Shown here one piece after another: positions 3,525 to 56,187 of a DNA stretch of 59,207 bases. Each line of letters begins with the position of its first letter. Position 1 is the first letter of the stretch. The DNA is from a bacterium (GTDB taxonomy: Bacteria; Fidelibacterota; UBA8477; JABMPR01): contig JABMPR010000256.1 of assembly GCA_013202895.1 (NCBI GenBank), forward strand, positions 1 to 59,207, written 5' to 3'. A program made the translations under genes and the position numbers. The notes beneath the pieces were generated by a model, which saw nothing but the letters and a program-made list of their open reading frames with translations, had not been told where the DNA came from and made no database searches.

Positions 3525-3578
3525 GTTTGCGACTCACTGAATTAGCGTCTGATGCTTGTTTGTATTTGGGAGTTAACA

Positions 3579-4445: not shown

Positions 4446-4540
4446 TTTTTACTCCTGCCTTCTTGGCATATTCAATTCTTGCATATTATCTATTCCCATT
4501 TACCACGCAAAGGATATTAACTTTTATATCTTATAACTCT

Positions 4541-5800: not shown

Positions 5801-5820
5801 AAGACGATCCTCTTTTTGGG

Positions 5821-6837
5821 TCAGTCCAGCCTTTTCCCTACCGCTTCTGCAACCATGCGCGTACGATCCACCAAATCCTTAAAATCAGCCGGCACTAATT
5901 GTTGAGGACCGTCGCTTAGCGCTTCTTCTGGATTGGGATGAACTTCAATCATAATACCATGTGCTCCGGCTGCTACACCGGCAAGAGCCAGGGGAAGCAC
6001 TTTGTGTCGTTTACCCGCAGCGTGGCTGGGATCAACAATAACTGGAAGATGTGACAGGCGCTGGAAAGCTGGTATCGCGCTTACATCCAATGTATTTCGG
6101 GTATGATCCACAAAGGTACGAATGCCCCGTTCACACAGGGTCACTTGTTCATTCCCTTCGTTGAGAATGTATTCGGCCGCTAGAATAGTTTCCTTAACCG
6201 TGGCTGACATTCCTCTCTTTAGCAAAATTGGTTTGCCTGTACGAGCAGCTTCCTTTAATAAGGTGTAATTCTGCATGTTGCGGGTTCCGATCTGCAGCAT
6301 ATCAGTATATTCGGCTGTCATCTCCAAAACCTCTGTGTCGATAACTTCAGTGACCGTTGGGAGGTTGACTTCTAAACCCACCTGTTTGAGTATTTTGAGG
6401 CCCTCTTCGCCAAGTCCCTGGAAAGAATAGGGTGAGGTTCGCGGTTTGAACGCACCTCCTCGAAGGATATGCCCTCCAGCACTCTTAACAGCCTCACCAA
6501 CAATTTTGGTCTGCTCATATGATTCGATTGAGCATGGACCTGCAATCACTGAAACCTTATTCCCACCAATACTGGTGTTTCCCACTTTTACAATTGTGTC
6601 CTGGGGTTGCCATTCGCGTGAGGCGAGCTTATAAGGCGTGCTGATATCGAGGACATCGGATACTTCAGGTAGGGCTTGAAGATGTTGTTTTCCACGGAGT
6701 GGTTTAGGCCCTATAACCCCTATTAGAGTTCGGGATTCACCAGGAGCGGGTCGGGGAATGTACCCCAACTTTTCAATTTCAAATTGAACTCTATCAATAG
6801 CTGCCTGTGAGGCATTTACTTTCATTATGACGATCAT
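5821..6837 (-). CDS. 3-deoxy-7-phosphoheptulonate (DAHP) synthase, type I-beta, with an N-terminal ferredoxin-like regulatory domain
   Basis: 338 aa. The N-terminal ~70 aa (MIVIMKVNAS...RTLIGVIG) resemble the Thermotoga-type regulatory domain. The barrel carries IAGPCSIES, GAFKPRTSPYSFQG and DPSHA. Confidence 0.9.
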   Translation of the reverse strand: MIVIMKVNASQAAIDRVQFEIEKLGYIPRPAPGESRTLIGVIGPKPLRGKQHLQALPEVSDVLDISTPYKLASREWQPQDTIVKVGNTSIGGNKVSVIAGPCSIESYEQTKIVGEAVKSAGGHILRGGAFKPRTSPYSFQGLGEEGLKILKQVGLEVNLPTVTEVIDTEVLEMTAEYTDMLQIGTRNMQNYTLLKEAARTGKPILLKRGMSATVKETILAAEYILNEGNEQVTLCERGIRTFVDHTRNTLDVSAIPAFQRLSHLPVIVDPSHAAGKRHKVLPLALAGVAAGAHGIMIEVHPNPEEALSDGPQQLVPADFKDLVDRTRMVAEAVGKRLD

Positions 6838-6895
6838 TGGAAGATGTCCTTCTTCATGGGCTTGTAAGGTTTTATGTTAGTTATCAAATTGCAAC

Positions 6896-8221
6896 TTAAA
6901 TCGGGTTCCCAGTTCTCTCAACAACCAGAAATAAGGTTTTATTGTCTTTAAGATCCTGAACTCCGTATTTCTTAACTTCCAGGCCATAAATCTCGGCTGC
7001 CCTGGCCGGAGCTATCACTGCGGTTGTCTCAGAGTATTCTCCGGCATTTAGGAGTCTGGCCGCTTCTGCCGTATCTTCGGCTTCAAAATGGGGGATATGT
7101 GAATAGTTATCTTTCAGAAATCGTGAACACTGTTTCAAAGCCTGTGGATGAGATCTAAGCTCTGTAATCTGATCTTCAGTCACATCCGGTTTTGTAATGA
7201 GACATTGATTGACCTGGATATGAAACATCGAGCGGACTTTGCAGCGAGCTTTTGCGAGAGCATGAATACTCTCATGTACTACACCACCGCGGGCGTTTTC
7301 CATAGCAAGAATACCACGATCAATTGCATAAGTTGCCAGGCTGTCCATAACTCCGCGACTACTCATACACGGCTTGATATCAATCGCTCCAAGTTTTTCC
7401 TCTTCGATATAATTGCGGGCGGCTTCCTCTGAGAAACTTCCTGGAATTCCTTGATACCCTATGATTTCTGGAGGAGAATCCGGGCGGAAGATACTGGCTT
7501 TCACGGCATGTACCGAACGTGAAAAAGCGGTGAGCATCTTGGCAGTATAGGGATTGTAAAATTGCAGATCATGAAAGAGCTCTTCGGTATCCTGGCATGT
7601 CTGCTCTACTACATGATGAACTTGTCGAAACCCATGGGTATCAACTTCTGTAGGTTGAATTTTCATCCCATTCATTACCCGACCCATAAAATGGGTGATG
7701 CCCTGCGAGCGGGCTGCCTGGCGATCGTGTTCCTCCACACTTATGTCTATGATGCGGCAACCCCAGGATTGAAAAATGTTTCTCCAGTTTGCTTCACGCT
7801 TTGGATCTATCCGTGATGGACAGAAGACCAAACGCAGGTCACGATCACGTTGATAGGAGTCTGGACCAAACATTGGGTGGGTATTAAGTATCTGGACTGA
7901 TTCTGGTAAAGCATTCAGCATCCAATCACGGATACGTGTCTTCACCGATGCCACATCAATAAAAAGTTGTCCCGGATGGCATAAATCTGAAATTTTCTCT
8001 AAAAGACCCGGCATGCGGCTGATTGGAATGGCAATGAACACTGTTTCCTGCTGCATAACGCTCGTCAGATCACTCCAGGTGTACCCAAGGGCTTTAACAG
8101 ATTCAGATAGATCGCGTTCATCACTGATAACGAGGTCAAAATCTTTTGTCAATAATTCTGCCAGAAGGGCGCCAAAACGACCAAACCCAATAATACCGAT
8201 TGTTTGTCTCGTGTGGTTCAA
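6896..8221 (-). CDS. Fusion of prephenate/arogenate dehydrogenase (N-terminal) and prephenate dehydratase (C-terminal); no ACT domain
   Basis: 441 aa. The N-terminal half has the IGIIGFGRFG Rossmann motif, HPMFGP and EHDRQAARSQGITHF (TyrA family). From about aa 255, IIGYQGIPGSFSEEAA runs to NKTLFLVV (PDT domain). The protein stops right after that, where an ACT domain normally follows. Confidence 0.8.
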   Translation of the reverse strand: MNHTRQTIGIIGFGRFGALLAELLTKDFDLVISDERDLSESVKALGYTWSDLTSVMQQETVFIAIPISRMPGLLEKISDLCHPGQLFIDVASVKTRIRDWMLNALPESVQILNTHPMFGPDSYQRDRDLRLVFCPSRIDPKREANWRNIFQSWGCRIIDISVEEHDRQAARSQGITHFMGRVMNGMKIQPTEVDTHGFRQVHHVVEQTCQDTEELFHDLQFYNPYTAKMLTAFSRSVHAVKASIFRPDSPPEIIGYQGIPGSFSEEAARNYIEEEKLGAIDIKPCMSSRGVMDSLATYAIDRGILAMENARGGVVHESIHALAKARCKVRSMFHIQVNQCLITKPDVTEDQITELRSHPQALKQCSRFLKDNYSHIPHFEAEDTAEAARLLNAGEYSETTAVIAPARAAEIYGLEVKKYGVQDLKDNKTLFLVVERTGNPI

Positions 8222-8545: not shown

Positions 8546-9352
8546 ATGCCCATGACCAATTTTACCCGCCCCGCAGCAGTTGCTGGTTCGTTTTATCCGG
8601 CGGATCCGGCTTTTCTACAAAAACAGCTTATTCAACTTCTAAGTGAAGCTACTTATAAGAGTGCACTTGTACCCAAGGCTATCATTGTCCCCCATGCTGG
8701 CTATATATATTCTGGTTCCATTGCATCTGCCGCTTACCGTAGTATTCAACAACACAATGACACGATCCGAAAGGTGATATTATTCGGCCCTGGACACAGA
8801 GTCGCAGTCCATGGTTTAGCCGTTCCTCGAGTCAATCAATTCCAGACGCCATTGGGTGATATTAATCTTGACCAAAAAACCATACGCGAATTGGTAGATA
8901 CCTTTACACAGGTCAGCTACTCTGATTTAGCACATTCAGAAGAACATTCTATTGAGGTCCAGCTTCCATTTTTGCAAACAGCTCTAGACAAATTCAGCCT
9001 CATTCCGTTGGTTGTTGGTGACGCAACCGAAATTGAAGTGGCTGCTGTCATTGAACACCTCTGGGGTGATGATGAAACACTTATCGTCATCTCGTCCGAT
9101 CTCAGTCATTTTCATAACTACGACAAAGCCGTCAGGGTGGATACAGAAACCGCTGAAATTATCGAGTCATTCAGGGGTATGGACCTATCTGAAAGATCTG
9201 CCTGTGGTCGTATTCCTATCAGTGGTATCCTACTAGTTGCTAGAAAAAAGAAAATGAATATCCAGCGCTTTGATCTACGGAATTCAGGCGATACCGCTGG
9301 AGATCGACAACGAGTCGTTGGATACGGAGCATGGGGATTGTTTCAAGCGTGA
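8546..9352 (+). CDS. amrB: AmmeMemoRadiSam system protein B (Memo-like)
   Basis: 268 aa. Carries RPAAVAGSFYPADP, VPHAGYIYSG and EHSIEVQLPFL, which are Memo family hallmarks. It is followed by AMMECR1 and radical SAM partner genes. Confidence 0.85.
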   Translation: MPMTNFTRPAAVAGSFYPADPAFLQKQLIQLLSEATYKSALVPKAIIVPHAGYIYSGSIASAAYRSIQQHNDTIRKVILFGPGHRVAVHGLAVPRVNQFQTPLGDINLDQKTIRELVDTFTQVSYSDLAHSEEHSIEVQLPFLQTALDKFSLIPLVVGDATEIEVAAVIEHLWGDDETLIVISSDLSHFHNYDKAVRVDTETAEIIESFRGMDLSERSACGRIPISGILLVARKKKMNIQRFDLRNSGDTAGDRQRVVGYGAWGLFQA

Positions 9353-9927
9353 GCCAGGACCTTTTCGACCCCTTGGAACAAGCTCAACTCCTTCAAATAG
9401 CTCGTTCCTCCGTAGAGTACGGACTAACACATGAGGAGGCATTACCTGTAAACCCCACAGAGTTTAGCCCTAATTTACAAGAACCGGGGGCAGCATTTGT
9501 TACACTGGAAACCCAGGGGCAATTGCGTGGTTGTATCGGTTCTGTGAAGGCCCGTCGTCCCCTGGTTATTGATGTGAGCAAAAATGCCTGGAATGCGGCT
9601 TTCCACGATACACGTTTTAAACCACTCAAGCGTTCAGAATTCAACGATCTGCACTTCGAAATCTCAATTCTAACTCATCCCAAACCCATGACATTCAGTT
9701 CAGAGGAGAACCTAAAACAGCAACTGGTTCCCGGTACAGATGGCCTGATCTTGAAGGACGGATATCGCCGTGGTCTTTTTCTTCCCTCAGTCTGGGAAAA
9801 ACTCCCTGATATCGATACCTTTCTTTCTCACCTGAAGCAAAAGGCTGGATTTCCCGACTCTTACTGGTCGGAGACACTTGAAGTAGAGCGCTTTTATAGT
9901 TTTGAATTTAGCGATGATGATTTCTGA
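9331..9927 (+). CDS. amrA: AmmeMemoRadiSam system protein A (AMMECR1 domain)
   Basis: 198 aa. Carries GAAFVTLETQGQLRGCIGS and LPSVWE, the AMMECR1 signatures. The listed start overlaps amrB by 22 nt, so the true start may be slightly downstream. Confidence 0.85.
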   Translation: MGIVSSVSQDLFDPLEQAQLLQIARSSVEYGLTHEEALPVNPTEFSPNLQEPGAAFVTLETQGQLRGCIGSVKARRPLVIDVSKNAWNAAFHDTRFKPLKRSEFNDLHFEISILTHPKPMTFSSEENLKQQLVPGTDGLILKDGYRRGLFLPSVWEKLPDIDTFLSHLKQKAGFPDSYWSETLEVERFYSFEFSDDDF

Positions 9928-10981
9928 GCATCCTGAGTTCAGCAGGAGCCTGGATGATGGTCGGCTCCAGTGTACCTTATGTCCTCGAGACTGTAAATTA
10001 TCCGATGCACAACGTGGCCTTTGTTTTGTCAGACAACGCCAGGGTAACAGGATTGCACTCACCACCTATGGACGGTCTAGTGGCTTTGTTATAGATCCGA
10101 TTGAAAAGAAACCCCTCAATCATTTTCTGCCCGGTACACCGGTGCTCTCTTTTGGGACTGCTGGGTGTAATTTGAGCTGTAAATTCTGCCAGAATTGGGA
10201 CATTAGTAAGTCTCGTGAAATGGATACGCTTCAATCTTCGGCAACGCCAGATGCTATTGTGCAAGCCGCGCTAGAACATGGCTGCAGGAGTGTCGCATTT
10301 ACATATAATGATCCTGTCATCTTTTATGAATATGCCGTTGATACTGCCATTGCCTGCCACAAAAATGGACTGAAAACGGTAGCTGTAACAGCCGGGTATA
10401 TTTCTGAGCAGGCGCGCCCGCGGTTCTTTGAACACATGGATGCTGCCAATGTCGACTTGAAAGGTTTTAGCGAGAGCTTTTATCATGATCTCTGTGCTGG
10501 CTCATTGTCTCATGTTCTGGAAACCTTATTGTATTTGGTCCATGAGTCCCAGGTTTGGATAGAAATCACAACCCTATTAATCCCAGACGAAAATGATTCT
10601 CCTGAGGAGTTGGAAGCCATGACAAAATGGATCGCAAACAATTTAGGGAAACACATCCCCCTGCACTTCACGGCGTTTCACCCTGACTATAAGTTCACAA
10701 ACAGGTCAGCCACCCCTCATCAGACACTCATGATCGCCAGAAAGATTGCTCTGAATAATGGACTCAAACACGTCTACCTGGGGAATGTCCATGATATTGA
10801 CAATGCTGCCACTTATTGCCACAACTGTGGAATAGTATTAATCACACGCATGGGTTACCAGCTCGGGGAGTGGCATCTTGATGAACAGGGTGCATGTGAG
10901 AAGTGTGGTTCACCAATCCCCGGTGTTTTCGAGGCACAAGCGGGGAATTGGGGTAATCGTTTTCAGCGTATCAGATTTTGA
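9902..10981 (+). CDS. amrS: AmmeMemoRadiSam system radical SAM enzyme
   Basis: 359 aa. Carries the CNLSCKFCQNWDIS radical-SAM cluster motif (CxxxCxxC), an N-terminal CTLCPRDC and a C-terminal CHNCG...CEKCG Cys pair. It overlaps amrA by 26 nt. Confidence 0.85.
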   Translation: MNLAMMISEHPEFSRSLDDGRLQCTLCPRDCKLSDAQRGLCFVRQRQGNRIALTTYGRSSGFVIDPIEKKPLNHFLPGTPVLSFGTAGCNLSCKFCQNWDISKSREMDTLQSSATPDAIVQAALEHGCRSVAFTYNDPVIFYEYAVDTAIACHKNGLKTVAVTAGYISEQARPRFFEHMDAANVDLKGFSESFYHDLCAGSLSHVLETLLYLVHESQVWIEITTLLIPDENDSPEELEAMTKWIANNLGKHIPLHFTAFHPDYKFTNRSATPHQTLMIARKIALNNGLKHVYLGNVHDIDNAATYCHNCGIVLITRMGYQLGEWHLDEQGACEKCGSPIPGVFEAQAGNWGNRFQRIRF

Positions 10982-11027
10982 TTCATTGCCTCGGTTGGAA
11001 TTATAATTTTTAAAAGCTTTATAATAA

Positions 11028-11053
11028 AAGAGGATCCCCATCAGGATCCTCTT
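11028..11053 (-). terminator. Rho-independent terminator hairpin between convergent genes
   Basis: A perfect 10-bp stem, AAGAGGATCC / GGATCCTCTT, with loop CCATCA. On the minus strand it is followed by a T-rich tract (CTTTTATTAT...). Confidence 0.6.
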
Positions 11054-11079
11054 CTCAATCATAGTGCTAAAGCGATGTA

Positions 11080-11625
11080 TCAGTTCATGATACCAAGGCC
11101 ATCATCACTGTCTATAATCACGCTGGCAAATTCCAGCTCAGTATCGTCGCGGTATAGAATACCCGATTTCCGTCCAAACTGACGAGCTTTATCATAATCC
11201 ATCATAAAAACATCGCCTCGACCTCTCCAACGCTTGTTCATTGTGTCTTCAACCTGCATGGGGACGACTACCCAGACTTTATCACCATATTGGATATCTC
11301 CACCCTGACCGTAGCGACTGATTAACTCGCGACTTAGTGCCAGTACTCCAGGAAAGATCTCTTTATTGCTGGCAGTAATGTTGGGGCTGTCATCAGTTTG
11401 ACCCACAAGGGCATTGTAGGCTGTGAATACAAGTGGATGCCCTTCTGTAAATAGATCCAGGGCTGCAGCCATTTCTTCGATGTATGTGGTTAACGAATCT
11501 TTTATCAGTAATTCTTGAGAATTTATTTTTCTGATCTCTGCTTTGTGTTTCACTTCACGATTACCCAGAAATCCCAAGAAAAGGACTAATATTATCGTGT
11601 ATATGAATATATGTTTGTCTTTCAT
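11080..11625 (-). CDS. Membrane-anchored or secreted protein, possibly a 3D/DPBB (MltA-like) domain
   Basis: I prefer the start at ATG 11625 because GAGGA lies 4 nt upstream; the ORF track's start is at 11682. An N-terminal hydrophobic anchor IFIYTIILVLFLGFLG is present. The C-terminal segment with spaced Asp residues (QTDDSP...YGDKVWVV...VEDTMNKRWRGRGDVFM) resembles 3D-domain proteins. The family call is tentative. Confidence 0.4.
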   Translation of the reverse strand: MKDKHIFIYTIILVLFLGFLGNREVKHKAEIRKINSQELLIKDSLTTYIEEMAAALDLFTEGHPLVFTAYNALVGQTDDSPNITASNKEIFPGVLALSRELISRYGQGGDIQYGDKVWVVVPMQVEDTMNKRWRGRGDVFMMDYDKARQFGRKSGILYRDDTELEFASVIIDSDDGLGIMN

Positions 11626-12099
11626 TTTTCCTCTATTATGTACATTTTTTTGTCTATTATTAATTAAGTTTGATTTTTTCATGGGATGATTGTCTTTGAG
11701 GCGCTAGTATAGACGGAGCATAACGGGTCAACAAGCATTAAATTGCGTTGCATTTGGTACTCATATCGCATCCGTGACTAATATCACAAAGAATTTCTCC
11801 TTTCATTCGCGAATGTAGGCAAGTCATTGATAATAAAAGTGATAAATGTCAATTTTGTCATATTGCTTACACTCTTAAATGACTTCCGGGGTGTTTAACT
11901 CCTAATCTTTAGTATTTACTTATTTTGGGACGCAGTCATTTTCTGAGCCAAAGTTACAACCCCACTGTAACCCAGTGATGCCGATTTCAGCAGATGATGA
12001 TGTAATTGGGAAAATCATTCAACCGATTTTACTTGGAGACAACCTGAAAACGGGAAAATTCTGCCTTTAAGATAATGTGGCTATTATAGAGGTCTTCCA

Positions 12100-13116
12100 A
12101 TGAGAGCATATGTGTTAAATAAAACTGGTGATACGAGAGTACTAAATATCTCAAATGTCGAACAGCCCAGTGTTGGTCCAGATGAGGTCCGAGTTAAAAT
12201 TCAAACCATTGGGTTGAATTATGCAGAAATCCAGAGTCGCAAAGGTCTATATGGTTGGAGCCCCAAACGACCATATACTCTCGGCATGGAGGCCTTTGGG
12301 GAAATTGAAGAAATTGGCGAAGCTGTAAAGGGGTTGCAATTAGGGAAGTCAGCCATCGTCATTGGCCAATATGGATGCTATGCTGAACAGGTAGTTGTCC
12401 CGGCTGCCCAGGTTTTATCAGCGTTTGGGCATTACAGTCCATCAGAAAATGCAGCAACTGCCGTTCAATTTATGACAGCCTGGGTTGCACTGATCGAGAT
12501 ATGCCGTCTACGATCATCCGATAGAGTACTCATCCAGGCTGCTGCTGGTGGTGTAGGTACCGCGGCCCTGAAATTGGCAAAAGCCCATAACTGTGAAGTC
12601 ATTGGCACCGCTGGATCAGAAATTAAACTAGAGTTGATTCGATCATTGGGAGCTGACCTGGCTATTAATTACAGGGCAGTTGACTTTGCCGAAATTATTC
12701 GAGAGAGATACTCTGGTTCTGGTGTTGATGTTGTTCTGGAAGTAGTAGGAGGTGAGGTTTTTCGCAAAAGTCTTGATCTCCTCAACCCCTTTGGCAGATT
12801 AGTGGTTATCGGATTTGCCAGCCTCAATTTGAACAAACTGAACCCCCTATCATGGTGGAAGACTTGGAAAGATATTCCGAAGGTCAAGATCGATGCCATG
12901 GCCAGGGCATCACAAGTCGTGGGAGCTAGTCATTTGGGATATCTGTTAAATGATACAGTTAGAATGAACCGGATCTGGAATGATTTAACCAGCTTTGTAA
13001 CAAAACATGATTTAAAACCTGTTGTGGGACACGAATTTACATTTGAGCAAATGCTAGAAGCGCATGCGCTCATGGAATCTCGCCAGAGCAGTGGCAAAAT
13101 CGTTGTGCATATCTAA
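12100..13116 (+). CDS. Quinone oxidoreductase / zinc-type alcohol dehydrogenase-like (MDR superfamily)
   Basis: 338 aa. It has a GroES-like N-terminus and the AAAGGVGTAALKLAK nucleotide-binding motif. Confidence 0.75.
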   Translation: MRAYVLNKTGDTRVLNISNVEQPSVGPDEVRVKIQTIGLNYAEIQSRKGLYGWSPKRPYTLGMEAFGEIEEIGEAVKGLQLGKSAIVIGQYGCYAEQVVVPAAQVLSAFGHYSPSENAATAVQFMTAWVALIEICRLRSSDRVLIQAAAGGVGTAALKLAKAHNCEVIGTAGSEIKLELIRSLGADLAINYRAVDFAEIIRERYSGSGVDVVLEVVGGEVFRKSLDLLNPFGRLVVIGFASLNLNKLNPLSWWKTWKDIPKVKIDAMARASQVVGASHLGYLLNDTVRMNRIWNDLTSFVTKHDLKPVVGHEFTFEQMLEAHALMESRQSSGKIVVHI

Positions 13117-13172
13117 TATCACTCATTCATACCCTGGTGTGTCAGCATGCAAAATTCTGATTATATTGACAG

Positions 13173-13910
13173 ATGAGTTTTTCCCAAATCCTGTTTAGAA
13201 CAGCAGCCGAAGCCCAACGGACATGTATAGGTATTCTGGGGGCCGGTGGGAAAACGACACTTATGCATACGCTGGGCGAGGAATTATCCAAACACCATTC
13301 CCCTGTTATCCTGTCTTCCCTGACCAAGGCAAGTAGGTCTGCGGATCACGCTGTTCATTTTTATCTAGAATTCGAGTCAGAGGAAACCAGAAACGAACTG
13401 CTTGTTAATAATCCTCTGTATATTATGGGTGAAATTGAGGACGAACAAAAACTAGCTGGAGTGGATGAAGGTCAGTTGCAAAGTCTGTACGAAGCATCCG
13501 AAGTCACTATCTTTGAATGTGATGGTGCTAGAAAAAAATCAATTAAAGCACACCAACCTTTTGACCCGGTGTTTCCTGAATTCACCACGCACGGCATCAT
13601 TGTTGTCGGCGCAGATGCAGTTGGTGCCCGAGTTGATGGGAAATTGGTTCATCGTCCGGAATTATTTCGGGAAATATGGGATGTAGACGTCAACTATGAG
13701 TTGGAACCCGCATTTATTGCCAAAGTCCTCACCAGCCAGTATGGTTATCTGCAGAAAGTACCCAAAGATGTAGAATTTGCCTATTTTGTCAACAAATCTG
13801 ATACTTTCCCAGATGAAGCAGAGCAGTTGGCTCAGGCGCTTGCGACGGTCTCAAGAGCAGCAGTATATTATGGCAGCATAAAAAAGAATATTCTGATAAA
13901 GACCCTTTAA
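13173..13910 (+). CDS. yqeC: YqeC-family accessory protein of selenium-dependent molybdenum hydroxylases
   Basis: 245 aa. Carries the P-loop-like GILGAGGKTTLMHTLGEEL and ECDGARK motifs typical of YqeC. It shares an operon with ygfJ, yqeB and xdhC homologues. Confidence 0.7.
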   Translation: MSFSQILFRTAAEAQRTCIGILGAGGKTTLMHTLGEELSKHHSPVILSSLTKASRSADHAVHFYLEFESEETRNELLVNNPLYIMGEIEDEQKLAGVDEGQLQSLYEASEVTIFECDGARKKSIKAHQPFDPVFPEFTTHGIIVVGADAVGARVDGKLVHRPELFREIWDVDVNYELEPAFIAKVLTSQYGYLQKVPKDVEFAYFVNKSDTFPDEAEQLAQALATVSRAAVYYGSIKKNILIKTL

Positions 13911-14497
13911 TGCTGAATCTAGCCATGATTATCACTGCGGCAGGGCGCTCAACGCGATTCCCACCAAATAAACTGCTGAACAAGCTGGAAAAACGAACGG
14001 CAATCGAACATACCATAAACACTTTTATCGATTTTGATCTGGATCTTTATGTCATCCTTGGTTATCAAAGCGACTTGATACAGGATGTTCTCGAAAAAAA
14101 CTATGGGAGTAAACTGATCTTTGAATACAACACTCAATTTCACACTGGTCTTTCAAGCTCTGTGATCACCGGAATTAAAGCTGCTGGTAGAACCTACGAC
14201 TACTGGTGTTTTTGTCCAGGTGATAAACCTTTCATTCAGCAAAAAACCGTTAGGTTGCTGATCCAGAAACTCGAACAGGAAAAGCCTCTGATTCTGGCTC
14301 CTCGTTTTCAAAATAAACCGGGGCATCCCACCTTTTTCTCAACTGAATTATCCCCACAGTTTAGTGCTGCTACTGGTGACGTTGGCGGTCGCCAGATCAT
14401 CGATGCTTTTCGTCACGAAACATTATTCTGGGATGTGGCTGATGAGGGGGTCAGCCTAGATATGGACTACTATCTTGAATTTGAGAATGTTCGCTGA
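13910..14497 (+). CDS. MobA/MocA-like nucleotidyltransferase (YgfJ-family Mo-hydroxylase accessory protein)
   Basis: 195 aa. The N-terminal IITAAGRSTRF motif and PGDKPF are characteristic of the MocA/YgfJ family. Its start overlaps the yqeC stop as TAATG. Confidence 0.75.
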   Translation: MLNLAMIITAAGRSTRFPPNKLLNKLEKRTAIEHTINTFIDFDLDLYVILGYQSDLIQDVLEKNYGSKLIFEYNTQFHTGLSSSVITGIKAAGRTYDYWCFCPGDKPFIQQKTVRLLIQKLEQEKPLILAPRFQNKPGHPTFFSTELSPQFSAATGDVGGRQIIDAFRHETLFWDVADEGVSLDMDYYLEFENVR

Positions 14498-15293
14498 AAT
14501 CCTGGTGTGGGTCAGAGGTACCGGTGAACTGGGTAGTGCGGTTGCCCATTTACTGCATAGGGTAGGCTTTTCCGTTTTCCTGTCCGAAATCTCCCCACCC
14601 CTGGCGATTCGCAGAGCAGTTTGTTTCAGTAGGGCCATACTTGAAGATGAATCTGAGGTTGAGGGTGTTGTGGCAAGATATATAAATGGATTCGGCACTG
14701 CCCCTATTGCTAAAGCAGATGTTATACCACTATATAAAGACACTCCCCAAAAATTAATGGATTACAAACCATCCGTGCTAATTGATGCACGCATGATCAA
14801 ACACTATAATGATGATTTTCGTTCCTGGGCCGATCTGGTTATTGGTCTTGGACCAGGTTTTAATACCAGCAGCAACTGTGACCTGATTATCGAAACCAAA
14901 CGTGGCCATGATCTTGGGCGAGTCATCACTTCAGGCAAGGCGCTTTCCAATACAGGAATACCGGGTAATGTTGGAGGCGAGACAGCCAATCGCTTGATAA
15001 AATCTCCCACAGCTGGGTTGGTTAGCTGGCAGGTTGATTTCGGAGAGCTTGTTTCAAAAGGACAGCAACTCGGTGATATCGATCAATCGGTTCCAATTTA
15101 CGCCCCGCTTGATGGAATGGTGCGCGGAATGATCTCCCCTGAGACACCAGTGACTAAAAATATGAAGATTGGTGATATTGATCCCAGGGGTTCCGAAGTG
15201 AGATATCTACAGATTTCAGATAAGGCACGCATGATTGCTTCAGGAGTGCTTGAGGCGATTGTCCTGCATTTGAATGTGAGCACAAATGATTAA
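14475..15293 (+). CDS. yqeB: YqeB-family selenium-dependent molybdenum hydroxylase system protein
   Basis: 272 aa. The N-terminal VWVRGTGELGSAVAHLLHRVGF and the C-terminal lipoyl/biotinyl-like YAPLDGMVRG...IGDIDPRG segment resemble the YqeB family. The true start may be Met 14487. Confidence 0.65.
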   Translation: MNLRMFAEILVWVRGTGELGSAVAHLLHRVGFSVFLSEISPPLAIRRAVCFSRAILEDESEVEGVVARYINGFGTAPIAKADVIPLYKDTPQKLMDYKPSVLIDARMIKHYNDDFRSWADLVIGLGPGFNTSSNCDLIIETKRGHDLGRVITSGKALSNTGIPGNVGGETANRLIKSPTAGLVSWQVDFGELVSKGQQLGDIDQSVPIYAPLDGMVRGMISPETPVTKNMKIGDIDPRGSEVRYLQISDKARMIASGVLEAIVLHLNVSTND

Positions 15294-16305
15294 AGCAATT
15301 TTGCAGCATGGCGCCACGGTTGCAGGAAAACATCCATCTGTTTTATGTTCTGTTGTCCAATGGAAGGGTTCTGTTCCCAGGAAAGACTTCCCCATGATGC
15401 TGGTTCTGGAGGATGGATCAGTTATCGGAACCATTGGTGGTGGTTCGATGGAACATATGATTGCAGAAACTGCAGTGCAAATGCTACAGGATAGTTCTGA
15501 ACCGCAACTCTTTGATTTTGACATGACAGGTACCGATGTTAATGCTGATGTGGGCTTATGTGGTGGGACCGTCAAAGTTTTGGTAGAGCCCTTCACTGAA
15601 TCCATTGCATCCTTTTATAAGAAAATGCTCGCTCAAGCGCCTGAGAATAGAAAGCTCATGGTCAGATTGATCGTAGATGGCGGTGATGCAAATAGAGTCA
15701 CCCGTACATTGATTGAATCTAATAAGGATATCAGTGAATTAGATCCTGCTCTACAAGATCAGATCAAAAAGAATTTTGACCATCAACAATCCAGAGCATT
15801 CAGGGTTGGCGATAAACATCACCTCTTATGGCAACCTTTTTCAACTCCAAGAATCCATATTTTCGGTGCTGGCCATGTTGGTCAATCCGTTGCTGCTCTG
15901 GCTCATTTCAATGGGCTAACGGTACAGGTTTATGATGATCGTCCTGATCTCCTAACTGAAGATCGGTTTCCCAATGCCAATAGAATCGAAATGGCATTCC
16001 CAATTAACTGGGATAAGCTTCCAGCTATTGAAGAATCTGCTTTTGTCTTGATCGCGAGTCGTAAGCATAAGCACGATCGTGAATTACTGATGGGGCTACT
16101 CAAAGTGCCACTTAAATATGTCGGTCTTGTCAGCAGTACACGCAAATGGAGAATCCTTGCTGAAAGTCTGGTCAGCAGTGGTTTCGATTCAGCATCAGTA
16201 TCCAGAGTTCATGCTCCTGTGGGTCTCGATATTGCAGCTCAAACCGTCCCCGAAATTGCTATCAGTATTATGTCTGAGATGATCAGAGAGTATCGTAAGA
16301 TATGA
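15286..16305 (+). CDS. XdhC/CoxI-family molybdenum cofactor insertion chaperone
   Basis: 339 aa. The N-terminal XdhC_CoxI segment (VVQWKGSVPRK...GTIGGG) is followed by the Rossmann-like IFGAGHVGQSVAAL. Its start overlaps the yqeB stop as ATGATTAA. Confidence 0.8.
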   Translation: MIKAILQHGATVAGKHPSVLCSVVQWKGSVPRKDFPMMLVLEDGSVIGTIGGGSMEHMIAETAVQMLQDSSEPQLFDFDMTGTDVNADVGLCGGTVKVLVEPFTESIASFYKKMLAQAPENRKLMVRLIVDGGDANRVTRTLIESNKDISELDPALQDQIKKNFDHQQSRAFRVGDKHHLLWQPFSTPRIHIFGAGHVGQSVAALAHFNGLTVQVYDDRPDLLTEDRFPNANRIEMAFPINWDKLPAIEESAFVLIASRKHKHDRELLMGLLKVPLKYVGLVSSTRKWRILAESLVSSGFDSASVSRVHAPVGLDIAAQTVPEIAISIMSEMIREYRKI

Positions 16306-16386
16306 ACTGCTTGTCCATCCTGTTGATCCAGGGATGTAAGAAATCCTGATTTAGATGAACCTTTCCTAATATCTGATAAATCTAGC

Positions 16387-16578
16387 CTATTGAGACAGAA
16401 ATAACGCCGCGCCAGTTGCACCTCTCACCACTGAGATGGCTGAAACGAAGACATAGAACCAATTTAGATCAGGAAATCCTAAATATACTACTGCCATGAC
16501 AATGGCAATGATGATCCCCTGGATACTTTCAGTTTTGTGGATCAGGGATAACTCACGTTCATCTGGAATATATTTCAT
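16387..16578 (-). CDS. Small integral membrane protein, 3' portion; the same frame stays open upstream through a TAG to ATG 16722
   Basis: The 63-aa ORF has two hydrophobic helices. Upstream in the same frame lie 28 further hydrophobic codons, then TAG (16663..16665), then 19 codons back to an ATG that overlaps the XRE gene's stop as ATGA. Confidence 0.45.
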   Translation of the reverse strand: MKYIPDERELSLIHKTESIQGIIIAIVMAVVYLGFPDLNWFYVFVSAISVVRGATGAALFLSQ

Positions 16579-16718
16579 TTGAACGATAACCAGTACAGCG
16601 ATGAATGGAATTGCTCCATAAACAACCCCTATGAGTCCAAATTCGGTACAAGCAATATATGTCTAAAACCCACTCAAAAACTGGATGATAAACATCATCA
16701 AATAATTCCCGCGAAATG

Positions 16719-16928
16719 TCATGAATCTTTCTTCCCCATAAAAAAAATTTTCTCGATACTGGTTTCAAAAAAAGCAGCGATCTTTAAAGCAGATAATACT
16801 GAAGGGACGAACTTGCCCCGCTCGATTGAATGTATGCTTTGACGACTAAGCCCCACTGATTTTGCCAGCTGCTCCTGGGTGATATCTCGCCTAGCTCGCC
16901 AAACCTTCAATTCATTTGTTAATTCCAT
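16719..16928 (-). CDS. XRE-family helix-turn-helix transcriptional regulator (short, about 69 aa)
   Basis: MELTNELKVWRARRDITQEQLAKSVGLSRQSIHSIERGKFVPS is a classic Cro/C1-type HTH. I prefer the internal Met (16928) over the longest ORF (16982). Confidence 0.8.
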   Translation of the reverse strand: MELTNELKVWRARRDITQEQLAKSVGLSRQSIHSIERGKFVPSVLSALKIAAFFETSIEKIFFMGKKDS

Positions 16929-16950
16929 AATGCCCTCAAAATAAATTCGA

Positions 16951-16999
16951 ATTAATGTAATGTATAATATGCATAATGTCATGTTCGCATTACATTATT
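16951..16999. promoter_or_regulatory. Inverted repeat (candidate operator) in the divergent XRE/MFS promoter region
   Basis: The arms ATTAATGTAATG (16951..16962) and CATTACATTATT (16988..16999) match at 11 of 12 positions, with a perfect 10-bp core. The spacer contains TATAAT (16963..16968). Confidence 0.4.
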
Positions 17000-17092
17000 A
17001 TAAATATAATAGACACTGCCCAAACCCTTTGCCCGCAAATAGACGTTAAAACACATTTGTCCGCTCCTCGTTTTGGATTAGCCTTGCTGCTT

Positions 17093-18250
17093 ATGGAAAA
17101 CATCAAAAGGGATCGCATGTTTATTTTCCTGGCAGTTATGTCCGTTGCTTCAACAGTGGGCTTCCAAGTCTGGCGAACTCTATTCAATAATTTTGCAGTA
17201 GAAGTTGTTGGCTTAGGCGGGAATCATATTGGAATGATTCAATCAATTCGGGAAATACCTGGATTTCTGGCACTCCTGGTGGTTTATGTGACATTGATAA
17301 TAAAGGAACACCATTTATCTGCTATTTCGATTTCTTTGCTGGGAATTGGAGTGGCATTGACTGGTCTTTTTCCTTCTTATGTGGGATTGATTTTCACTAC
17401 GCTGTTTATGAGTTTTGGCTTCCATTATTTTGAAACAACCAATCAATCGCTGACCCTACAATATTTTGATATAAAGACATCTCCCTGGGTTATGGGAAAA
17501 ATGCGCAGCTATTCCTCGGCTGCTGCGATTATCATTGGTTTGATTATACTTCTGGTCAATGATTACCTCAGCTACGAGGTGATGTTCGGAGTACTGGGGT
17601 CTTTGATTATTCTTGCTGGTATTTGGGGGGTAATGCAAAATCCCACTCGCGAGGATTTGGTTCCGCAACATAAAAAGATGATTCTGCGGAAACGCTATAG
17701 CCTGTATTATTTCTTAACCTTTATGGCTGGTGCACGGCGTCAGATCTTTGTGGCCTTCGCTGTTTTTCTGCTGGTAGAGAGGTTCCAATTCAGTGTAAGG
17801 GAGATCACCCTGCTCTTTATGCTAAATAATGCCATCAACTATTTTGTGAGCCCCTTGATAGGAAAAGCTATCATTCGCTTTGGGGAACAGAAAGTGCTAT
17901 CCACCGAATATCTGAGCCTGATATTTATTTTTATTGCCTATGCAACGGTGGAATCCAAAGCAGTTATTGCCATACTATACATTTTCGATCATGTCTTTTT
18001 TAATTTTTCAATGGCTATTCGTACCTTTTTCCAGAAAATTGGAAATCCGGAGCATATGGCACCCACAATGGCTGCGGGCTTTACAATCAATCATATCGCC
18101 GCAGTTATTATTCCTGTATTGGGAGGCTTAGCCTGGATTGTAGATTATCGCATACCTTTTTTCGCAGGAGCTATCATGAGTCTAATTTCTCTGGTTGCAG
18201 TTCAATTTATATCCAGCAACATAAACAAAGCAGAGTTAAGGCACATTTAA
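17093..18250 (+). CDS. MFS-type transporter
   Basis: About 385 aa counted from Met 17093 (the ORF track's start is at 16976). It has 10-12 predicted TM helices in two halves. The substrate is unknown. Confidence 0.6.
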   Translation: MENIKRDRMFIFLAVMSVASTVGFQVWRTLFNNFAVEVVGLGGNHIGMIQSIREIPGFLALLVVYVTLIIKEHHLSAISISLLGIGVALTGLFPSYVGLIFTTLFMSFGFHYFETTNQSLTLQYFDIKTSPWVMGKMRSYSSAAAIIIGLIILLVNDYLSYEVMFGVLGSLIILAGIWGVMQNPTREDLVPQHKKMILRKRYSLYYFLTFMAGARRQIFVAFAVFLLVERFQFSVREITLLFMLNNAINYFVSPLIGKAIIRFGEQKVLSTEYLSLIFIFIAYATVESKAVIAILYIFDHVFFNFSMAIRTFFQKIGNPEHMAPTMAAGFTINHIAAVIIPVLGGLAWIVDYRIPFFAGAIMSLISLVAVQFISSNINKAELRHI

Positions 18251-18356
18251 GTCTTCATGGTTAAGGAACGCTTTCCGCATAGCTTTAAATTTTTTATGTT
18301 TGAATGATTGGCAAGACCCGTTTCATCTTTTAGCTTAATACAGAAAGGAACTATTT

Positions 18357-18584
18357 ATGCATATCAAAATTGAATATTGCGTTACTTGAAACTATCTACC
18401 TAGAGCAACCAGTTTGGTTGTGGGAATCCTTGATAAATTTGGTAATGATGTCAAATCCCTAACAGTCATACCCTCATCAGGGGGTGCGTACAATATTTGG
18501 AAAAATGATGAACCTATTTTTTCAAAACAAAAAGAGGGTCGCTTCCCCTTTAGCGATGATGAGGTAATCAATCTCCTGGGTTGA
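18357..18584 (+). CDS. SelW-like / Rdx-family selenoprotein (75 codons, Sec at TGA 18387..18389)
   Basis: Manual translation gives MHIKIEYCVT-U-NYLPRATSLVVGILDKFGNDVKSLTVIPSSGGAYNIWKNDEPIFSKQKEGRFPFSDDEVINLLG-stop. The CxxU motif follows the first beta-strand, and GG.Y.I...IFSK...GRFP is typical of Rdx proteins. AAAGGA lies upstream of the ATG. A hairpin follows the TGA. Confidence 0.7.
18399..18424 (+). promoter_or_regulatory. Candidate bacterial SECIS hairpin
   Basis: The upper stem is CAACC (18406..18410) / GGUUG (18416..18420) with apical loop AGUUU. A possible lower stem is CCUA / UGGG with a GAG bulge. The apical loop starts 22 nt after the UGA and contains a G. Confidence 0.5.
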
Positions 18585-18738
18585 TCAAATTGGCAATGTA
18601 ACTCCCGATAATCCAAGATTTAAGCCAGATCACAGATCAACATTTGTTAGCTTTTAGTCTTTGCCGCTTCAAACGCGACAGCTAAGTTTGGATGGTTTAT
18701 TTACTAACTTGAGATTAGGTGCAAGCACTGGCTTAAGA

Positions 18739-19689
18739 ATGGAGAGAATAATGTTTCGACATGTGGGGATATTCATAATTTCAAGCCTGCTTATGGCAGG
18801 TCCATCCTGGGCTGAACAACCCTATCCCAAAGGCGATCCAATTGCCCTAAGTATAGCTGGAGACTTTTATATGGCACCACAATGGTCGCCTGAAGGAGAC
18901 AGGGTGGCTGCAACAGGATCAAACTATACAGGTCTTTATCTTATTGATTTCCCCACTGGAAATTCTACTCAAATAAGCGAAGCCTATTCAGCAGGGTACG
19001 GATTTGCCTGGTCACATGATGGTTCAAAAATCGCTTCTAGAATCTCAAGTTTTGATAATATGCGACGCACCCACACCCTGGTTAGTTTCAATGTTGATGA
19101 TGCCTCGATGGAAATACTAAGCGAACCCAGGTCAATGATGGTGGGAGTTCCGCTGTGGTCCTCTACGGATTCTCATCTATATCTAACTTATGCTGACAAA
19201 CTTGAAAGTTTTAGCGTTCTTAACAGCCCTTCTGTCATTAGTGAGCCTCTTATATATGTCAATGATGGCAATATGATTTTGCGAGCAGCGGATGGATTAT
19301 CGGAGACCTCTCTATTTAGCGGCCAGGACCGGATAAGCAGTTATGCGCTTTCCCCCGATGGGTCCTTGATTGTTTATTCAAGCTCTGGCCAAAATTTGTG
19401 GATCGCCAATTCTAACGGCACCAACCTGAAAAACCTTGGAGCAGGTATAGCACCATCCTGGTCTCCGGATAGCCAGTGGATCACCTTTATGGTCACACAT
19501 GATGATGGGCATTCCATCCTGGAAGCTGATCTATATGTTATTAATACCAAGGGCCAGTCGCGTACAAATATCACAAATACTCCTGGCCAATTGGAAATGC
19601 ATCCGAAATGGTCGCCCGATGCAAGCTGGATTGTATTTGATACCGAGGGGCAAGGTCAACTCTTTGTCCAGCAAGTGGCGTGGAGGTGA
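18739..19689 (+). CDS. Secreted PD40/TolB-like beta-propeller repeat protein
   Basis: A signal peptide MFRHVGIFIISSLLMAGPSWA is present. Repeated WSPDG/WSPEGD/WSPDS/WSPDAS motifs are typical of WD40-like PD40 repeats. I prefer the ATG at 18739 over the TTG at 18661. Confidence 0.7.
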   Translation: MERIMFRHVGIFIISSLLMAGPSWAEQPYPKGDPIALSIAGDFYMAPQWSPEGDRVAATGSNYTGLYLIDFPTGNSTQISEAYSAGYGFAWSHDGSKIASRISSFDNMRRTHTLVSFNVDDASMEILSEPRSMMVGVPLWSSTDSHLYLTYADKLESFSVLNSPSVISEPLIYVNDGNMILRAADGLSETSLFSGQDRISSYALSPDGSLIVYSSSGQNLWIANSNGTNLKNLGAGIAPSWSPDSQWITFMVTHDDGHSILEADLYVINTKGQSRTNITNTPGQLEMHPKWSPDASWIVFDTEGQGQLFVQQVAWR

Positions 19690-46610: not shown

Positions 46611-46658
46611 CTGCACCAAACAGATCAATTATGTTCACAACGAATTGAAAAAGGGAAA

Positions 46659-50235: not shown

Positions 50236-50316
50236 GGTGCTGGTAAACTTTGATATATGTAATTTTCCATATACTCCATATTTGCAGTATTAAATAAGTT
50301 ACGGAAGACCAATAAT

Positions 50317-51528: not shown

Positions 51529-51608
51529 TATTGCACAGGTTTCTGGTTTTCGTTAATGACGCTATCAAAACGAACTGAACCTTTCCAGGATATCATTATT
51601 GGAGAAGC

Positions 51609-52766: not shown

Positions 52767-52918
52767 AAATGATCTTATTTTTTCAGCGAAGTTCACAAAC
52801 GTGATTTACAAGCAGAAAATCAACATGACTCTGGTTGAACCTTGTGATGAACCGAATAATTGCCTAAAGTAATTTGTAGAATTTGCCCAATAAGCGGATT
52901 TAAAAAAGAAAGTCCAAG

Positions 52919-54385: not shown

Positions 54386-54397
54386 AGTATCGGCATC

Positions 54398-55639: not shown

Positions 55640-55641
55640 AC

Positions 55642-56130: not shown

Positions 56131-56187
56131 AATGGAAATGTATACGCTTAATTTGGGGAATGCTGGTCCTACTGAGGTTTTCAAAGC

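Follow-up and report, generated by a model that had tools for sequence, protein, structure and literature searches.

An in-frame UGA codon within a conserved gene

The locus studied here raises a simple question: does the UGA codon at positions 18387-18389 of the window (the whole stretch of DNA analysed, 59,207 nucleotides) end a short peptide, or is it decoded as selenocysteine (Sec) within a longer protein? The initial annotation had proposed the second answer, placing a hidden SelW/Rdx-family selenoprotein gene of 75 codons at this position, opened by ATG 18357 and preceded by AAAGGA. Sequence and conceptual translation (18357..18584, + strand: MHIKIEYCVT-[TGA]-NYLPRATS...INLLG) match this description exactly. 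The accompanying statement on the list of open reading frames (ORFs) holds in part: the antisense 74-aa ORF is listed, but the + strand is not empty, as a 56-aa ORF starting at a TTG codon is listed as well. The reading frames of the interval are the following:

18357..18584, + strand: SelW-like/Rdx-family selenoprotein gene of 75 codons, Sec being codon 11, with its TGA stop at 18582-18584
18387-18389, + strand: recoded UGA, codon 11, in frame
18414..18584, + strand: 56-aa ORF with a TTG start, the fragment annotated by gene callers
18392..18616, - strand: antisense 74-aa ORF from the mechanical ORF list

We conclude, with a probability of about 0.9, that 18357..18584 is a functional and independently transcribed gene encoding a 75-residue SelW-like (Rdx-family) thioredoxin-fold protein with a Cys8-x-x-Sec11 active site, and that the in-frame UGA of this hidden gene almost certainly encodes selenocysteine.

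To what extent is the frame maintained in relatives? The gene was compared at 44 related loci, 19 from genomes and 25 from metagenomes, mostly of Candidatus Neomarinimicrobiota (SAR406). Assemblies and contigs with an orthologue include JABHBL01, JADHVL01, JAERTG01, CAYVVT01 (contig of 626 kb), Ga0233446_1000002 (544 kb) and Ga0335114_10232726. TGA is present at codon 11 in 19/19 genome loci and in 25/25 metagenome loci, at protein identities of 42-79 %, and the reading frame across this codon is maintained in all 44. The peptide upstream of the UGA is conserved as M-x-IK-IEYC-xx, while codons 3, 5, 7 and 9 vary synonymously. None of the homologues ends at codon 10. The antisense ORF behaves differently. 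As the longest uninterrupted ORF of the interval in the standard list, it might be taken for the coding gene, the similarity of the + strand being incidental. However, it has no Pfam match, internal stops break up its frame in 22 of the 26 relatives compared, and substitutions track the codon phase of the + strand. The antisense ORF was rejected as a gene on the first two grounds, and this explanation is extremely improbable.

The protein is a member of the Rdx/SelW family

The initial annotation had assigned the product to the Rdx (SelW) family, with a CxxU motif directly after the first beta-strand, and had suggested a comparison of the 75-aa translation with the Pfam Rdx model. When the protein was scored with U replaced by C, it matched PF10262 with 67.1 bits (cutoff 22.6, E = 1.6e-18), residues 2-66 being aligned with profile positions 1-65 of 74, so that the match runs across the UGA codon. 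Scored alone, the sequence past the UGA reaches only 37.1 bits, the ten N-terminal codons contributing ~30 bits. The protein also passes the NCBIfam model TIGR02174 (CXXU_selWTH) with 53.7 bits (cutoff 34.2). In length and architecture it resembles the short Campylobacter-type SelW-like proteins described by NF041051 (SelTWH_Campy), but it falls short of membership in this equivalog, with a score of 72.5 bits (cutoff 88) along profile positions 1-69 of 70.

The motif that defines the family is located at the UGA:

18378..18389, + strand: CxxU redox motif Cys8-Val-Thr-Sec11, aligned with CTQC of solved Rdx proteins

C-V-T-[UGA] aligns with CTQC of 2ojl, 2fa8 and 3dex, and the second Cys of six solved CxxC Rdx proteins falls at the position of the UGA. 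Relatives thus align either Cys (the six structures) or TGA (the 44 loci) with this codon, as the initial annotation had anticipated. The fold was assessed on an AlphaFold model (pLDDT 88.2, pTM 0.74) of P0001, an orthologue with 79 % identity to the window protein. This predicted model has the thioredoxin-like beta-alpha-beta-beta-beta-alpha fold and places CxxU after strand 1 (residues 2-8) and before helix 1 (14-28). It superimposes on 2fa8, 2obk, 3dex, 2oka, 2p0g and 2ojl with TM scores of 0.85-0.88 and RMSD of 1.3-1.5 Å over 73 residues, and its best 21 PDB matches, in the same TM range, are all bacterial SelW-related/Rdx entries. The two profile matches and the predicted fold therefore bear out the family assignment.

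A hairpin downstream of the UGA is under selection as RNA

In bacteria, the published model of the SECIS element (bSECIS) asks for an apical loop of 3-9 nt, an upper stem of 4-16 bp and a spacing of 16-37 nt from the UGA, together with a G among the first two bases of the loop and a minimum free energy (MFE) of -7.5 kcal/mol or below (PMC13188914). The initial annotation had pointed to a hairpin with the expected geometry, drawn with a CAACC/GGUUG upper stem, an AGUUU loop and a lower stem. The elements found are:

18405..18421, + strand: bacterial SECIS core within the coding sequence, a 7-bp stem GCAACCA/UGGUUGU with a GUU loop, based on comparative evidence
18399..18424, + strand: possible lower stem, CCU 18399-18401 with GGG 18422-18424, from the minimum-energy fold of the window sequence

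The core, made of strands GCAACCA (18405-18411) and UGGUUGU (18415-18421) closed by the GUU loop (18412-18414), fits the published model on all four of its constraints, with a loop of 3 nt, a stem of 7 bp, G-U in the loop and a loop start 22 nt past the UGA; its MFE is -9.5 kcal/mol. This is the same element as the one drawn initially, as the AGUUU drawing simply omits the loop-closing A-U pair and the outermost G-U pair. The lower stem did not stand: across relatives only 65 % of its cells are paired and covariation is absent, and we rejected it as a part of the SECIS, the alignment suggesting that it is probably not required for the element.

Considered alone, the hairpin is not more than what chance provides. 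Its stability is ordinary for its composition (z = -0.74, 40/200 shuffles folding equally well), the single-sequence folding statistics being non-significant (z = 0.28 and -0.74), and ~10 % of the TGA triplets of the window precede a hairpin that passes this loose bacterial SECIS model, or 2 % when stems of 7 bp or more are demanded. A search of the whole window with Rfam at gathering thresholds gave no match, which says little. Since stability is unremarkable, the argument rests on comparative evidence and not on thermodynamics.

This comparative evidence was obtained from 31 distinct sequences. The helix is paired in 100 % of 217 cells, and sliding the partner strand lowers this to 7-49 %. 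Twelve double-sided compensatory changes occur, at two pairs, and the pair 21-33 is found as AU, GC, CG, GU and UG, while the first G of the loop is invariant. The covariation score of 0.256 was reached by none of 500 shuffles (0.128 +/- 0.015), and the slid controls gave 0.007-0.093. In addition, synonymous-codon entropy drops to 0.30 bits at codons 17-22, compared to 1.51 bits elsewhere (p = 1e-4). The hairpin is under selection as RNA, and the proposed SECIS geometry is both consistent with the published model and conserved with covariation. The similarity of the protein across the UGA is far beyond chance, as is the retention of both UGA and hairpin at 44/44 loci.

Conserved signals precede the ATG and not the internal start

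We then considered the sequence upstream of the frame, in which two signals were read:

18308..18336, + strand: putative sigma-70-type promoter, with a -35-like TTGGCA (18308-18313), a 17-nt spacer and a -10-like TAGCTT (18331-18336)
18344..18349, + strand: Shine-Dalgarno AAAGGA, read from the sequence, 7 nt before ATG 18357

In most of the 23 loci compared by eye, TTG(T/G/C)CAA, a spacer of ~17 nt and TAG(T/C)TT lie at a constant distance from the ATG, even though this DNA is intergenic; this pattern suggests that 18308..18336 acts as a promoter. A sigma-70 consensus scan called no promoter there because the -10 element matches at only 3/6 positions. AAGGAG or AAAGGA is present at the position of the Shine-Dalgarno in nearly all relatives. 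Both conserved signals precede ATG 18357 and not the internal TTG.

These observations bear on the possibility that the UGA is a true stop, in which case the product would be the 56-aa fragment with TTG 18414 as its start and the upstream ten codons would be a short uORF or a non-coding leader. Gene callers do give proteins of 51-56 aa for 12 of 16 database relatives, one of these short proteins is named 'Rdx family protein' by NCBI, and the C-terminal fragment clears the Pfam cutoff by itself. However, such a fragment would be devoid of strand 1 and of the family-defining CxxU/CxxC motif. The starts that were called are inconsistent from one relative to another (TTG or ATG, at 'LVAGIL', 'VGIL' or 'LDKF') and have no Shine-Dalgarno, in contrast to ATG 18357 with its conserved Shine-Dalgarno and promoter. 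Moreover, the ten upstream codons are conserved as protein, with synonymous changes, and account for the ~30 bits of Rdx score mentioned above, and the frame is retained across the TGA in all 44 loci. A true stop at this position is hence very improbable.

The genetic code and the Sec machinery

If the UGA is read through, is the inserted residue Sec? Within the window, TGA is the commonest ordinary stop codon, ending 24 of 51 long ORFs, including at overlapping ATGA junctions. A reassigned code (codes 4 and 25) is therefore excluded and recoding is site-specific, as the initial annotation had stated from aroB and the radical SAM gene. A mechanical scan of the window for further genes with an in-frame TGA returned only junk frames in intergenic gaps; the window thus contains no second selenoprotein that could lend independent support to Sec decoding.

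Genes for SelA, SelB, SelD and tRNA-Sec were not found in ~67 kb of the genome (the window and 7.8 kb of source contig), nor in ~0.6 Mb of flanks of the 44 related loci. ARAGORN detected no tRNA-Sec when run on the window, the 19 genome loci (L001-L019) and L047-L050, of which L047 and L049 are the same contig as the window, and tblastn with E. coli SelA, SelB and SelD gave no match in the window, the 44 related loci or the extended source contig. In a large-database search with E. coli SelA, the matches listed (at least 120) were all enterobacterial. In a published survey, two SAR406 single-cell genomes were scored as Sec-utilising, SelB being the signature of the trait (PMC5029168, Table S2), and three others were classified as 'orphan SelD', neither Sec machinery nor selenoprotein genes being detected in these incomplete genomes (PMC5029168). 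For the SAR406 single-cell genome AAA003-L08, five selenoprotein genes were reported. A search of the literature on Marinimicrobia, Marinisomatota or SAR406 with selenocysteine or selenoprotein yielded no paper on this gene, the only relevant data being the tables of Peng et al. 2016.

It could be argued from these data that the UGA is read as a residue other than Sec: a suppressor or near-cognate tRNA might insert Trp, Cys or Gly, an alternative code might apply, or decoding might bypass SelB. The Sec machinery is absent from all the sequence examined (window, source contig and flanks of relatives), a SelB-free route would fit the SAR406 genomes reported without SelA/SelB, three SAR406 genomes are listed as 'orphan SelD', and ENA gene calls render the codon as W under code 4. 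However, the W calls are artefacts of contigs of ~1 kb or less, and the 24 of 51 long ORFs ending at TGA speak against codes 4 and 25. The codon is located at the catalytic Cys/Sec position of the family, where Trp or Gly would abolish the motif; the selected hairpin has exactly the SelB-type geometry with a G-U loop; and the two Sec-utilising SAR406 genomes were scored through the SelB signature (PMC5029168). Non-Sec readthrough is thus quite improbable, and the chance that a lineage with 'orphan SelD' members decodes this UGA independently of SelB is very slight at most.

We therefore retain selenocysteine as the residue predicted at the UGA, and the most plausible route for its insertion is SelB-dependent. 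Translation would initiate at ATG 18357, and the ribosome would not terminate at UGA 18387. The mRNA hairpin 18405-18421 would display its G-U apical loop 22 nt past the UGA and recruit SelB, the elongation factor dedicated to Sec, with its load of Sec-tRNA(Sec), Sec would be inserted, and translation would run on to TGA 18582. The SelW-like product would have a redox role, as a small thiol/selenol oxidoreductase cycling between selenol/thiol and selenenylsulfide states.

A selenium-cofactor block is located upstream of the gene

The initial annotation had also placed a maturation operon for Se-dependent molybdenum hydroxylases 2 kb from the gene. Two proteins encoded upstream pass the corresponding NCBIfam equivalog cutoffs, which establishes this proximity:

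13173-13910: YqeC (TIGR03172, 138.9 bits, cutoff 73.05)
14475-15293: YqeB (TIGR03309, 271.3 bits, cutoff 220)

YgeY, YgeW and subunits of the XDH family are encoded at 46.6-57 kb of the window, and the window thus carries the selenium-cofactor trait, i.e., maturation of Se-dependent molybdenum hydroxylases. By the definition of this trait (PMC5029168), the presence of YqeB and YqeC implies SelD and the use of selenium in this genome.

Throughout Neomarinimicrobiota, the SelW-like gene lies 0.1-3 kb downstream of a yqeC-mocA-yqeB-xdhC block, and in L018, the most divergent member, it directly follows xdhC. One may ask whether the selenoprotein, instead of having a generic redox role, is tied to the labile-selenium cofactor pathway, serving for instance as a selenol/thiol carrier or reductant for the YqeB/YqeC/XdhC-type maturation of the Se-dependent Mo-hydroxylases of the window. 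Against this, the gene is served by a separate promoter, joined in L018 by a separate terminator, and the linkage to the yqeC block is missing from the unrelated lineages in which the gene occurs (L019, L042-L046). The functional linkage is unsupported outside the phylum, and we consider it unlikely.

Comparison with known selenoproteins and SECIS elements

SelW-like proteins are a known selenoprotein family (PMC1088965, PMC2398784, PMC13188914) and the most abundant one in marine prokaryotes, with 48 genes in the Sargasso Sea and 427 Sec compared to 56 Cys forms in GOS (PMC1088965, PMC2398784). The SELENOW-like family is listed as 'predicted with high confidence' in a 2026 review. The gene of the window shares with the bacterial members (PF10262; NF041051 and TIGR02174, e.g., of Campylobacter) the family, the CxxU motif after strand 1, a length of 70-75 aa, the in-frame UGA followed by a SECIS hairpin in the coding region, and the marine setting. 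It differs from the Campylobacter-type equivalog by its score (72.5 versus 88 bits for NF041051), and thus forms a distinct subgroup. It also differs from the Sargasso Sea and GOS sequences: those reads were anonymous and could reveal neither lineage, nor synteny, nor promoter, whereas here the gene is assigned to Candidatus Neomarinimicrobiota, with fixed synteny and a conserved promoter of its own.

The Cys-type Rdx structures (2fa8, Agrobacterium Atu0228; 2obk, 2oka, 3dex, 2p0g and 2ojl) have the same fold and motif position but carry CxxC (CTQC), are ~100-108 aa long with extra termini, and show a sequence identity of only 23-30 %. The thioredoxin-like fold with CxxU/CxxC after strand 1 is also common to eukaryotic SelW, SelT, SelH, SelV and MIEN1, mouse SelW (2npb) and MIEN1 (2ljk) being the next-best structural matches (TM 0.70-0.76). 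The eukaryotic proteins show 16-22 % sequence identity and rely on a SECIS in the 3'-UTR with a kink-turn quartet, and on SBP2 and eEFSec, whereas the element described here is a simple hairpin in the coding region, in the bacterial style. Like the SelB-recognised SECIS of the E. coli fdhF or Moorella type, it is a stem-loop just past the UGA with a G-U apical loop at canonical spacing. In contrast to these, it has no primary-sequence similarity to them, a bulged U comparable to U17 of fdhF is not evident, and SelB binding is here predicted.

Implications

Knowledge of the Sec-decoding mechanism and of SelW-like function is unchanged by these results. As the gene falls in the commonest, already known selenoprotein family of marine bacteria, their main value is the correction of an annotation. 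This gene is systematically mis-called in the lineage: JGI and NCBI calls give fragments of 51-56 aa without the active site, and ENA calls on short contigs give the full-length protein with a spurious Trp (code 4). The alignment of 31 hairpin sequences with compensatory changes illustrates cleanly how a SECIS within a coding region evolves under compensation, and a covariance model could be built from it. With regard to the organisms, part of the abundant and formerly anonymous marine SelW-like pool is now assigned to Candidatus Neomarinimicrobiota (SAR406), a major phylum of the dark ocean. The 'orphan SelD' listings of SAR406 more likely reflect incomplete genomes than a new selenium pathway. 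Two adjacent selenium traits are thus present in the lineage: the first is Sec, and the second, the YqeB/YqeC cofactor trait, is accompanied by hydroxylases that are probably its clients.

A SelW-like gene with an in-frame UGA

On comparative sequence evidence, positions 18357..18584 are very probably (about nine chances in ten) a translated SelW-like gene with a predicted selenocysteine (Sec). The frame described in the initial annotation, MHIKIEYCVT followed by TGA and onward from ATG 18357 with AAAGGA upstream, agrees with the sequence and is laid out as follows.

Elements and ORF calls at the SelW-like gene
18308-18336, + strand: promoter-like pair TTGnCAA, 17-nt spacer, TAGyTT, from conservation among relatives
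18344-18349, + strand: Shine-Dalgarno AAAGGA, 7 nt before ATG 18357
18357, + strand: start codon ATG, opening MHIKIEYCVT, TGA, then 64 codons
18387-18389, + strand: in-frame TGA, codon 11
18392..18616, - strand: antisense ORF, 74 aa (mechanical ORF list)
18414..18584, + strand: TTG ORF, 56 aa (mechanical ORF list)
18582-18584, + strand: terminal TGA, end of the 75-codon frame

The Shine-Dalgarno sequence and the promoter-like pair are kept in most of the 23 loci compared. The ORF list does contain the antisense ORF noted initially; the + strand, said to be empty, carries the 56-aa TTG fragment, which is the product reported by automatic gene callers. The antisense ORF was rejected as a gene: stop codons interrupt it in 22 of 26 relatives, and it matches no family.

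For profile scoring, U was replaced by C in the 75-residue translation. The proposed assignment to the Rdx/SelW family was borne out: Pfam Rdx (PF10262) aligns with residues 2-66 across the UGA (E 1.6e-18, 67.1 bits), and the translation passes NCBIfam TIGR02174 (CXXU_selWTH) with 53.7 bits (cutoff 34.2), while the equivalog NF041051 (short Campylobacter-type) scores 72.5 bits, below its cutoff of 88. The fragment downstream of the UGA by itself scores 37.1 bits with PF10262, and thus the ten upstream codons add ∼30 bits of family-specific signal. The translation also matches six bacterial Rdx proteins of known structure (2ojl, 2fa8, 3dex, 2p0g, 2obk, 2oka), which have C-T-Q-C where the window gene has C-V-T-[UGA]; the two motifs align, so that the second Cys falls at the UGA. 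An AlphaFold model of a 79% identical orthologue, P0001 (pLDDT 88, pTM 0.74), comprises strand 2-8, helix 14-28, strands 34-40, 45-49 and 52-56, and helix 67-74, which places the CxxU motif in the junction between strand 1 and helix 1. This model superimposes on the six crystal structures with TM scores of 0.85-0.88 (RMSD 1.3-1.5 Å, 73 residues), remoter matches being, in order, MIEN1, mouse SelW and thioredoxins.

The UGA codon is conserved

The comparison covered 19 loci of species-representative genomes (Candidatus Neomarinimicrobiota in nearly every case, one Myxococcales and a few labelled Lentisphaeria) and 25 further related loci taken from metagenomes. TGA occupies codon 11 in 44 of these 44 loci, whose protein identity runs from 79% down to 42%, and the frame runs on in each; homologues ending at codon 10, which would have spoken against the gene, were not among them. 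Relatives keep the decapeptide preceding the UGA, M-x-(I/V)-K-(I/V)-E-Y-C-x-x, while its codons vary synonymously (Ile3 ATC/ATT/ATA, Tyr7 TAT/TAC, Val9 GTT/GTC/GTA). A reassigned genetic code, in which every TGA would be read as an amino acid, is excluded because TGA serves as a normal stop more often than any other codon in the window: it ends 24 of the 51 non-overlapped ORFs that reach 100 aa or more, among them cases with overlapping ATGA junctions; recoding is therefore site-specific, as originally proposed.

In one Neomarinimicrobiota MAG (L010, positions 36-47, codons 8-11), S-V-T-U replaces C-V-T-U; this may be either a genuine SxxU variant or an error in the sequence. Four loci (L002, L011, L017 and L018) come from MAG records named "uncultured Lentisphaeria bacterium" (binchicken / SRP co-assemblies). 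They show the gene order of the Neomarinimicrobiota loci and 50-80% protein identity to them, and the label is probably wrong.

A covarying hairpin follows the UGA

The predicted fold downstream of the UGA is a hairpin with a 7-bp stem (G18405-A18411 / U18415-U18421) closed by a GUU loop. The published bacterial SECIS model calls for a loop of 3-9 nt, an upper stem of 4-16 bp, a UGA spacing of 16-37 nt, a G among the first two loop bases, most often as G[G/U], and an MFE of at most -7.5 kcal/mol (PMC13188914); the hairpin lies within every one of these bounds (3 nt, 7 bp, 22 nt, GU and -9.5 kcal/mol). Its stability is no better than that of shuffled sequence (z = -0.74), and in our own scan of the 2,654 TGA triplets of the window, 10% are followed by a hairpin fitting the model and 2% by one whose stem has 7 bp or more. 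The hairpin by itself therefore proves little.

The comparative case for this putative SECIS is decisive. In an alignment of 34 hairpin sequences, 31 of them distinct, all 217 cells of the helix (100%) are paired, compared with 7-49% once the 3' arm is shifted by 1-3 nt. AU, GC, CG, GU and UG are all seen at pair 21-33, and AU and GC at pair 22-32, with 12 double-sided changes in total at the two, and the observed covariation score was matched in 0 of 500 shuffles. The first loop base is an invariant G, and the second is U in 32/34 and G in 2/34. Each of codons 17-22 (A-T-S-L-V-A) is spelled in essentially a single way (mean entropy 0.30 bits versus 1.51 bits for the gene's other 4-/6-fold degenerate codons; Mann-Whitney p = 1e-4); frozen synonymous sites of this kind are what an RNA structure within a coding sequence should leave behind. 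The SECIS-like geometry claimed initially thus stands, except for a lower stem CCU/GGG, which is 65% paired across the alignment and not conserved.

Orthologues are mis-annotated

The protein database holds 16 close relatives. Four are full-length 75-aa calls in ENA entries from contigs of ∼1 kb or less, and their W at position 11 betrays translation under code 4 (UGA read as Trp). The other 12 are 51-56-aa calls that start, inconsistently, past the UGA; such JGI and NCBI fragments carry the names "selenoprotein W-related" or "Rdx family protein". Orthologues are thus systematically cut short or mistranslated in public databases.

Selenium-cofactor genes and other neighbours

The Se-dependent Mo-hydroxylase maturation operon reported nearby was recovered, with YqeC and YqeB above their NCBIfam cutoffs.

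Selenium-cofactor and Mo-hydroxylase genes
13173-13910: YqeC (TIGR03172, 138.9 bits, cutoff 73)
13910-14497: MocA-like cytidylyltransferase
14475-15293: YqeB (TIGR03309, 271 bits, cutoff 220)
15286-16305: XdhC-family maturation factor
44964-59207, + strand: purine-catabolism / "selenium-dependent molybdenum hydroxylase" neighbourhood, continuing in L047 (the extension of the contig) at 10831-19583
46659-48923: XDH-family Mo subunit
55642-56130: XDH-family 2Fe-2S subunit
56188-57009: XDH-family FAD subunit
From near 57018, past the window's end: YgfK-like Fe-S/FAD protein, 1099 aa

The neighbourhood at 44964-59207 resembles E. coli ygeW-ygfK; it encodes YgeY (676 bits, cutoff 321), YgeW (629 bits, cutoff 500), adenine deaminase, an SsnA-like protein and two PLP enzymes, and a second XDH trio lies beyond the window on the source contig. 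These genes are probable clients and associates of the YqeB/YqeC at 13-16 kb.

Throughout the phylum the genes keep the order ADH-YqeC-MocA-YqeB-XdhC-(HTH)-MFS-SelW-PD40-amidase. The SelW-like gene of L018 lies directly behind xdhC, ∼120 nt downstream, and an obvious terminator then follows; yqeB/yqeC were not seen near the gene in the unrelated lineages L019 and L042-L046. Wherever it occurs, the SelW-like gene seems to be transcribed on its own, so we read its linkage to the Se-cofactor genes as inherited synteny rather than an operon.

The most conserved neighbour is the MFS transporter immediately upstream (16976-18250, + strand), with 74-88% identity across the phylum versus 52-65% for YqeB, YqeC and XdhC; it is absent from L018. 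The 670-bp gap between the XdhC-like and MFS genes holds an XRE/Cro-type helix-turn-helix gene (∼69 aa, about 16719-16927, - strand), most similar to the RstR/HipB-type repressor families of NCBIfam, below cutoffs. Farther away, at 142-8221 (- strand) and 8546-10981 (+ strand), lie a complete shikimate/aromatic amino-acid operon (aroB, aroK, aroC, aroE, aroA, DAHP synthase and a prephenate dehydrogenase/dehydratase fusion) and an adjoining AmmeMemoRadiSam system (Memo, AMMECR1 and a radical SAM enzyme, TIGR04337, 602 bits). Some bacteria have an MsrA that is itself a selenoprotein. The bifunctional MsrB/MsrA methionine sulfoxide reductase gene at 39663-40619 (+ strand; NF004042, 448 bits, cutoff 330) has no in-frame TGA, and its MsrA is apparently not a selenoprotein.

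Sec-decoding machinery

The window corresponds to about 48.2-107.4 kb, reversed, of the JGI metagenome contig Ga0335114_10232726 (107,541 bp; sample 3300032731), with 99.97% identity over the 3 kb compared. Using the E. coli SelA, SelB and SelD sequences from NC_000913, tblastn gave no match in the window, the 44 related loci or the extra 7.8 kb of this contig; ARAGORN found no tRNA in the window or the 19 genome loci, and a SelA database search returned only enterobacterial clusters among the matches listed.

Single-cell genomes are typically incomplete. Peng et al. (2016), who used SelD/SelA/SelB to score the Sec trait and took SelB as its signature, list two Sec-utilising single-cell genomes of SAR406 (Neomarinimicrobiota), with 1 and 5 selenoproteins (PMC5029168, Table S2), and three others with an "orphan SelD" and no trait found (Table 1). 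This published context is mixed, mostly supportive; given such incompleteness, it is simplest to suppose that Sec use is a trait of the phylum and that the "orphans" are assembly gaps.

SelW-like CxxU proteins have been known as bacterial selenoproteins for two decades and are described as the most abundant such family in marine prokaryotes, with 48 genes in the Sargasso Sea study and 427 Sec versus 56 Cys forms in GOS (PMC1088965, PMC2398784), and a 2026 review places the "SELENOW-like protein, PF10262, CxxU" in families "predicted with high confidence" (PMC13188914); the window gene therefore belongs to an already known kind. Our analysis adds its placement in Neomarinimicrobiota, a clean, covariation-backed alignment of the putative SECIS, a conserved putative promoter, the finding that public annotations cut short or mistranslate the gene, and its co-location with a complete Se-cofactor trait.
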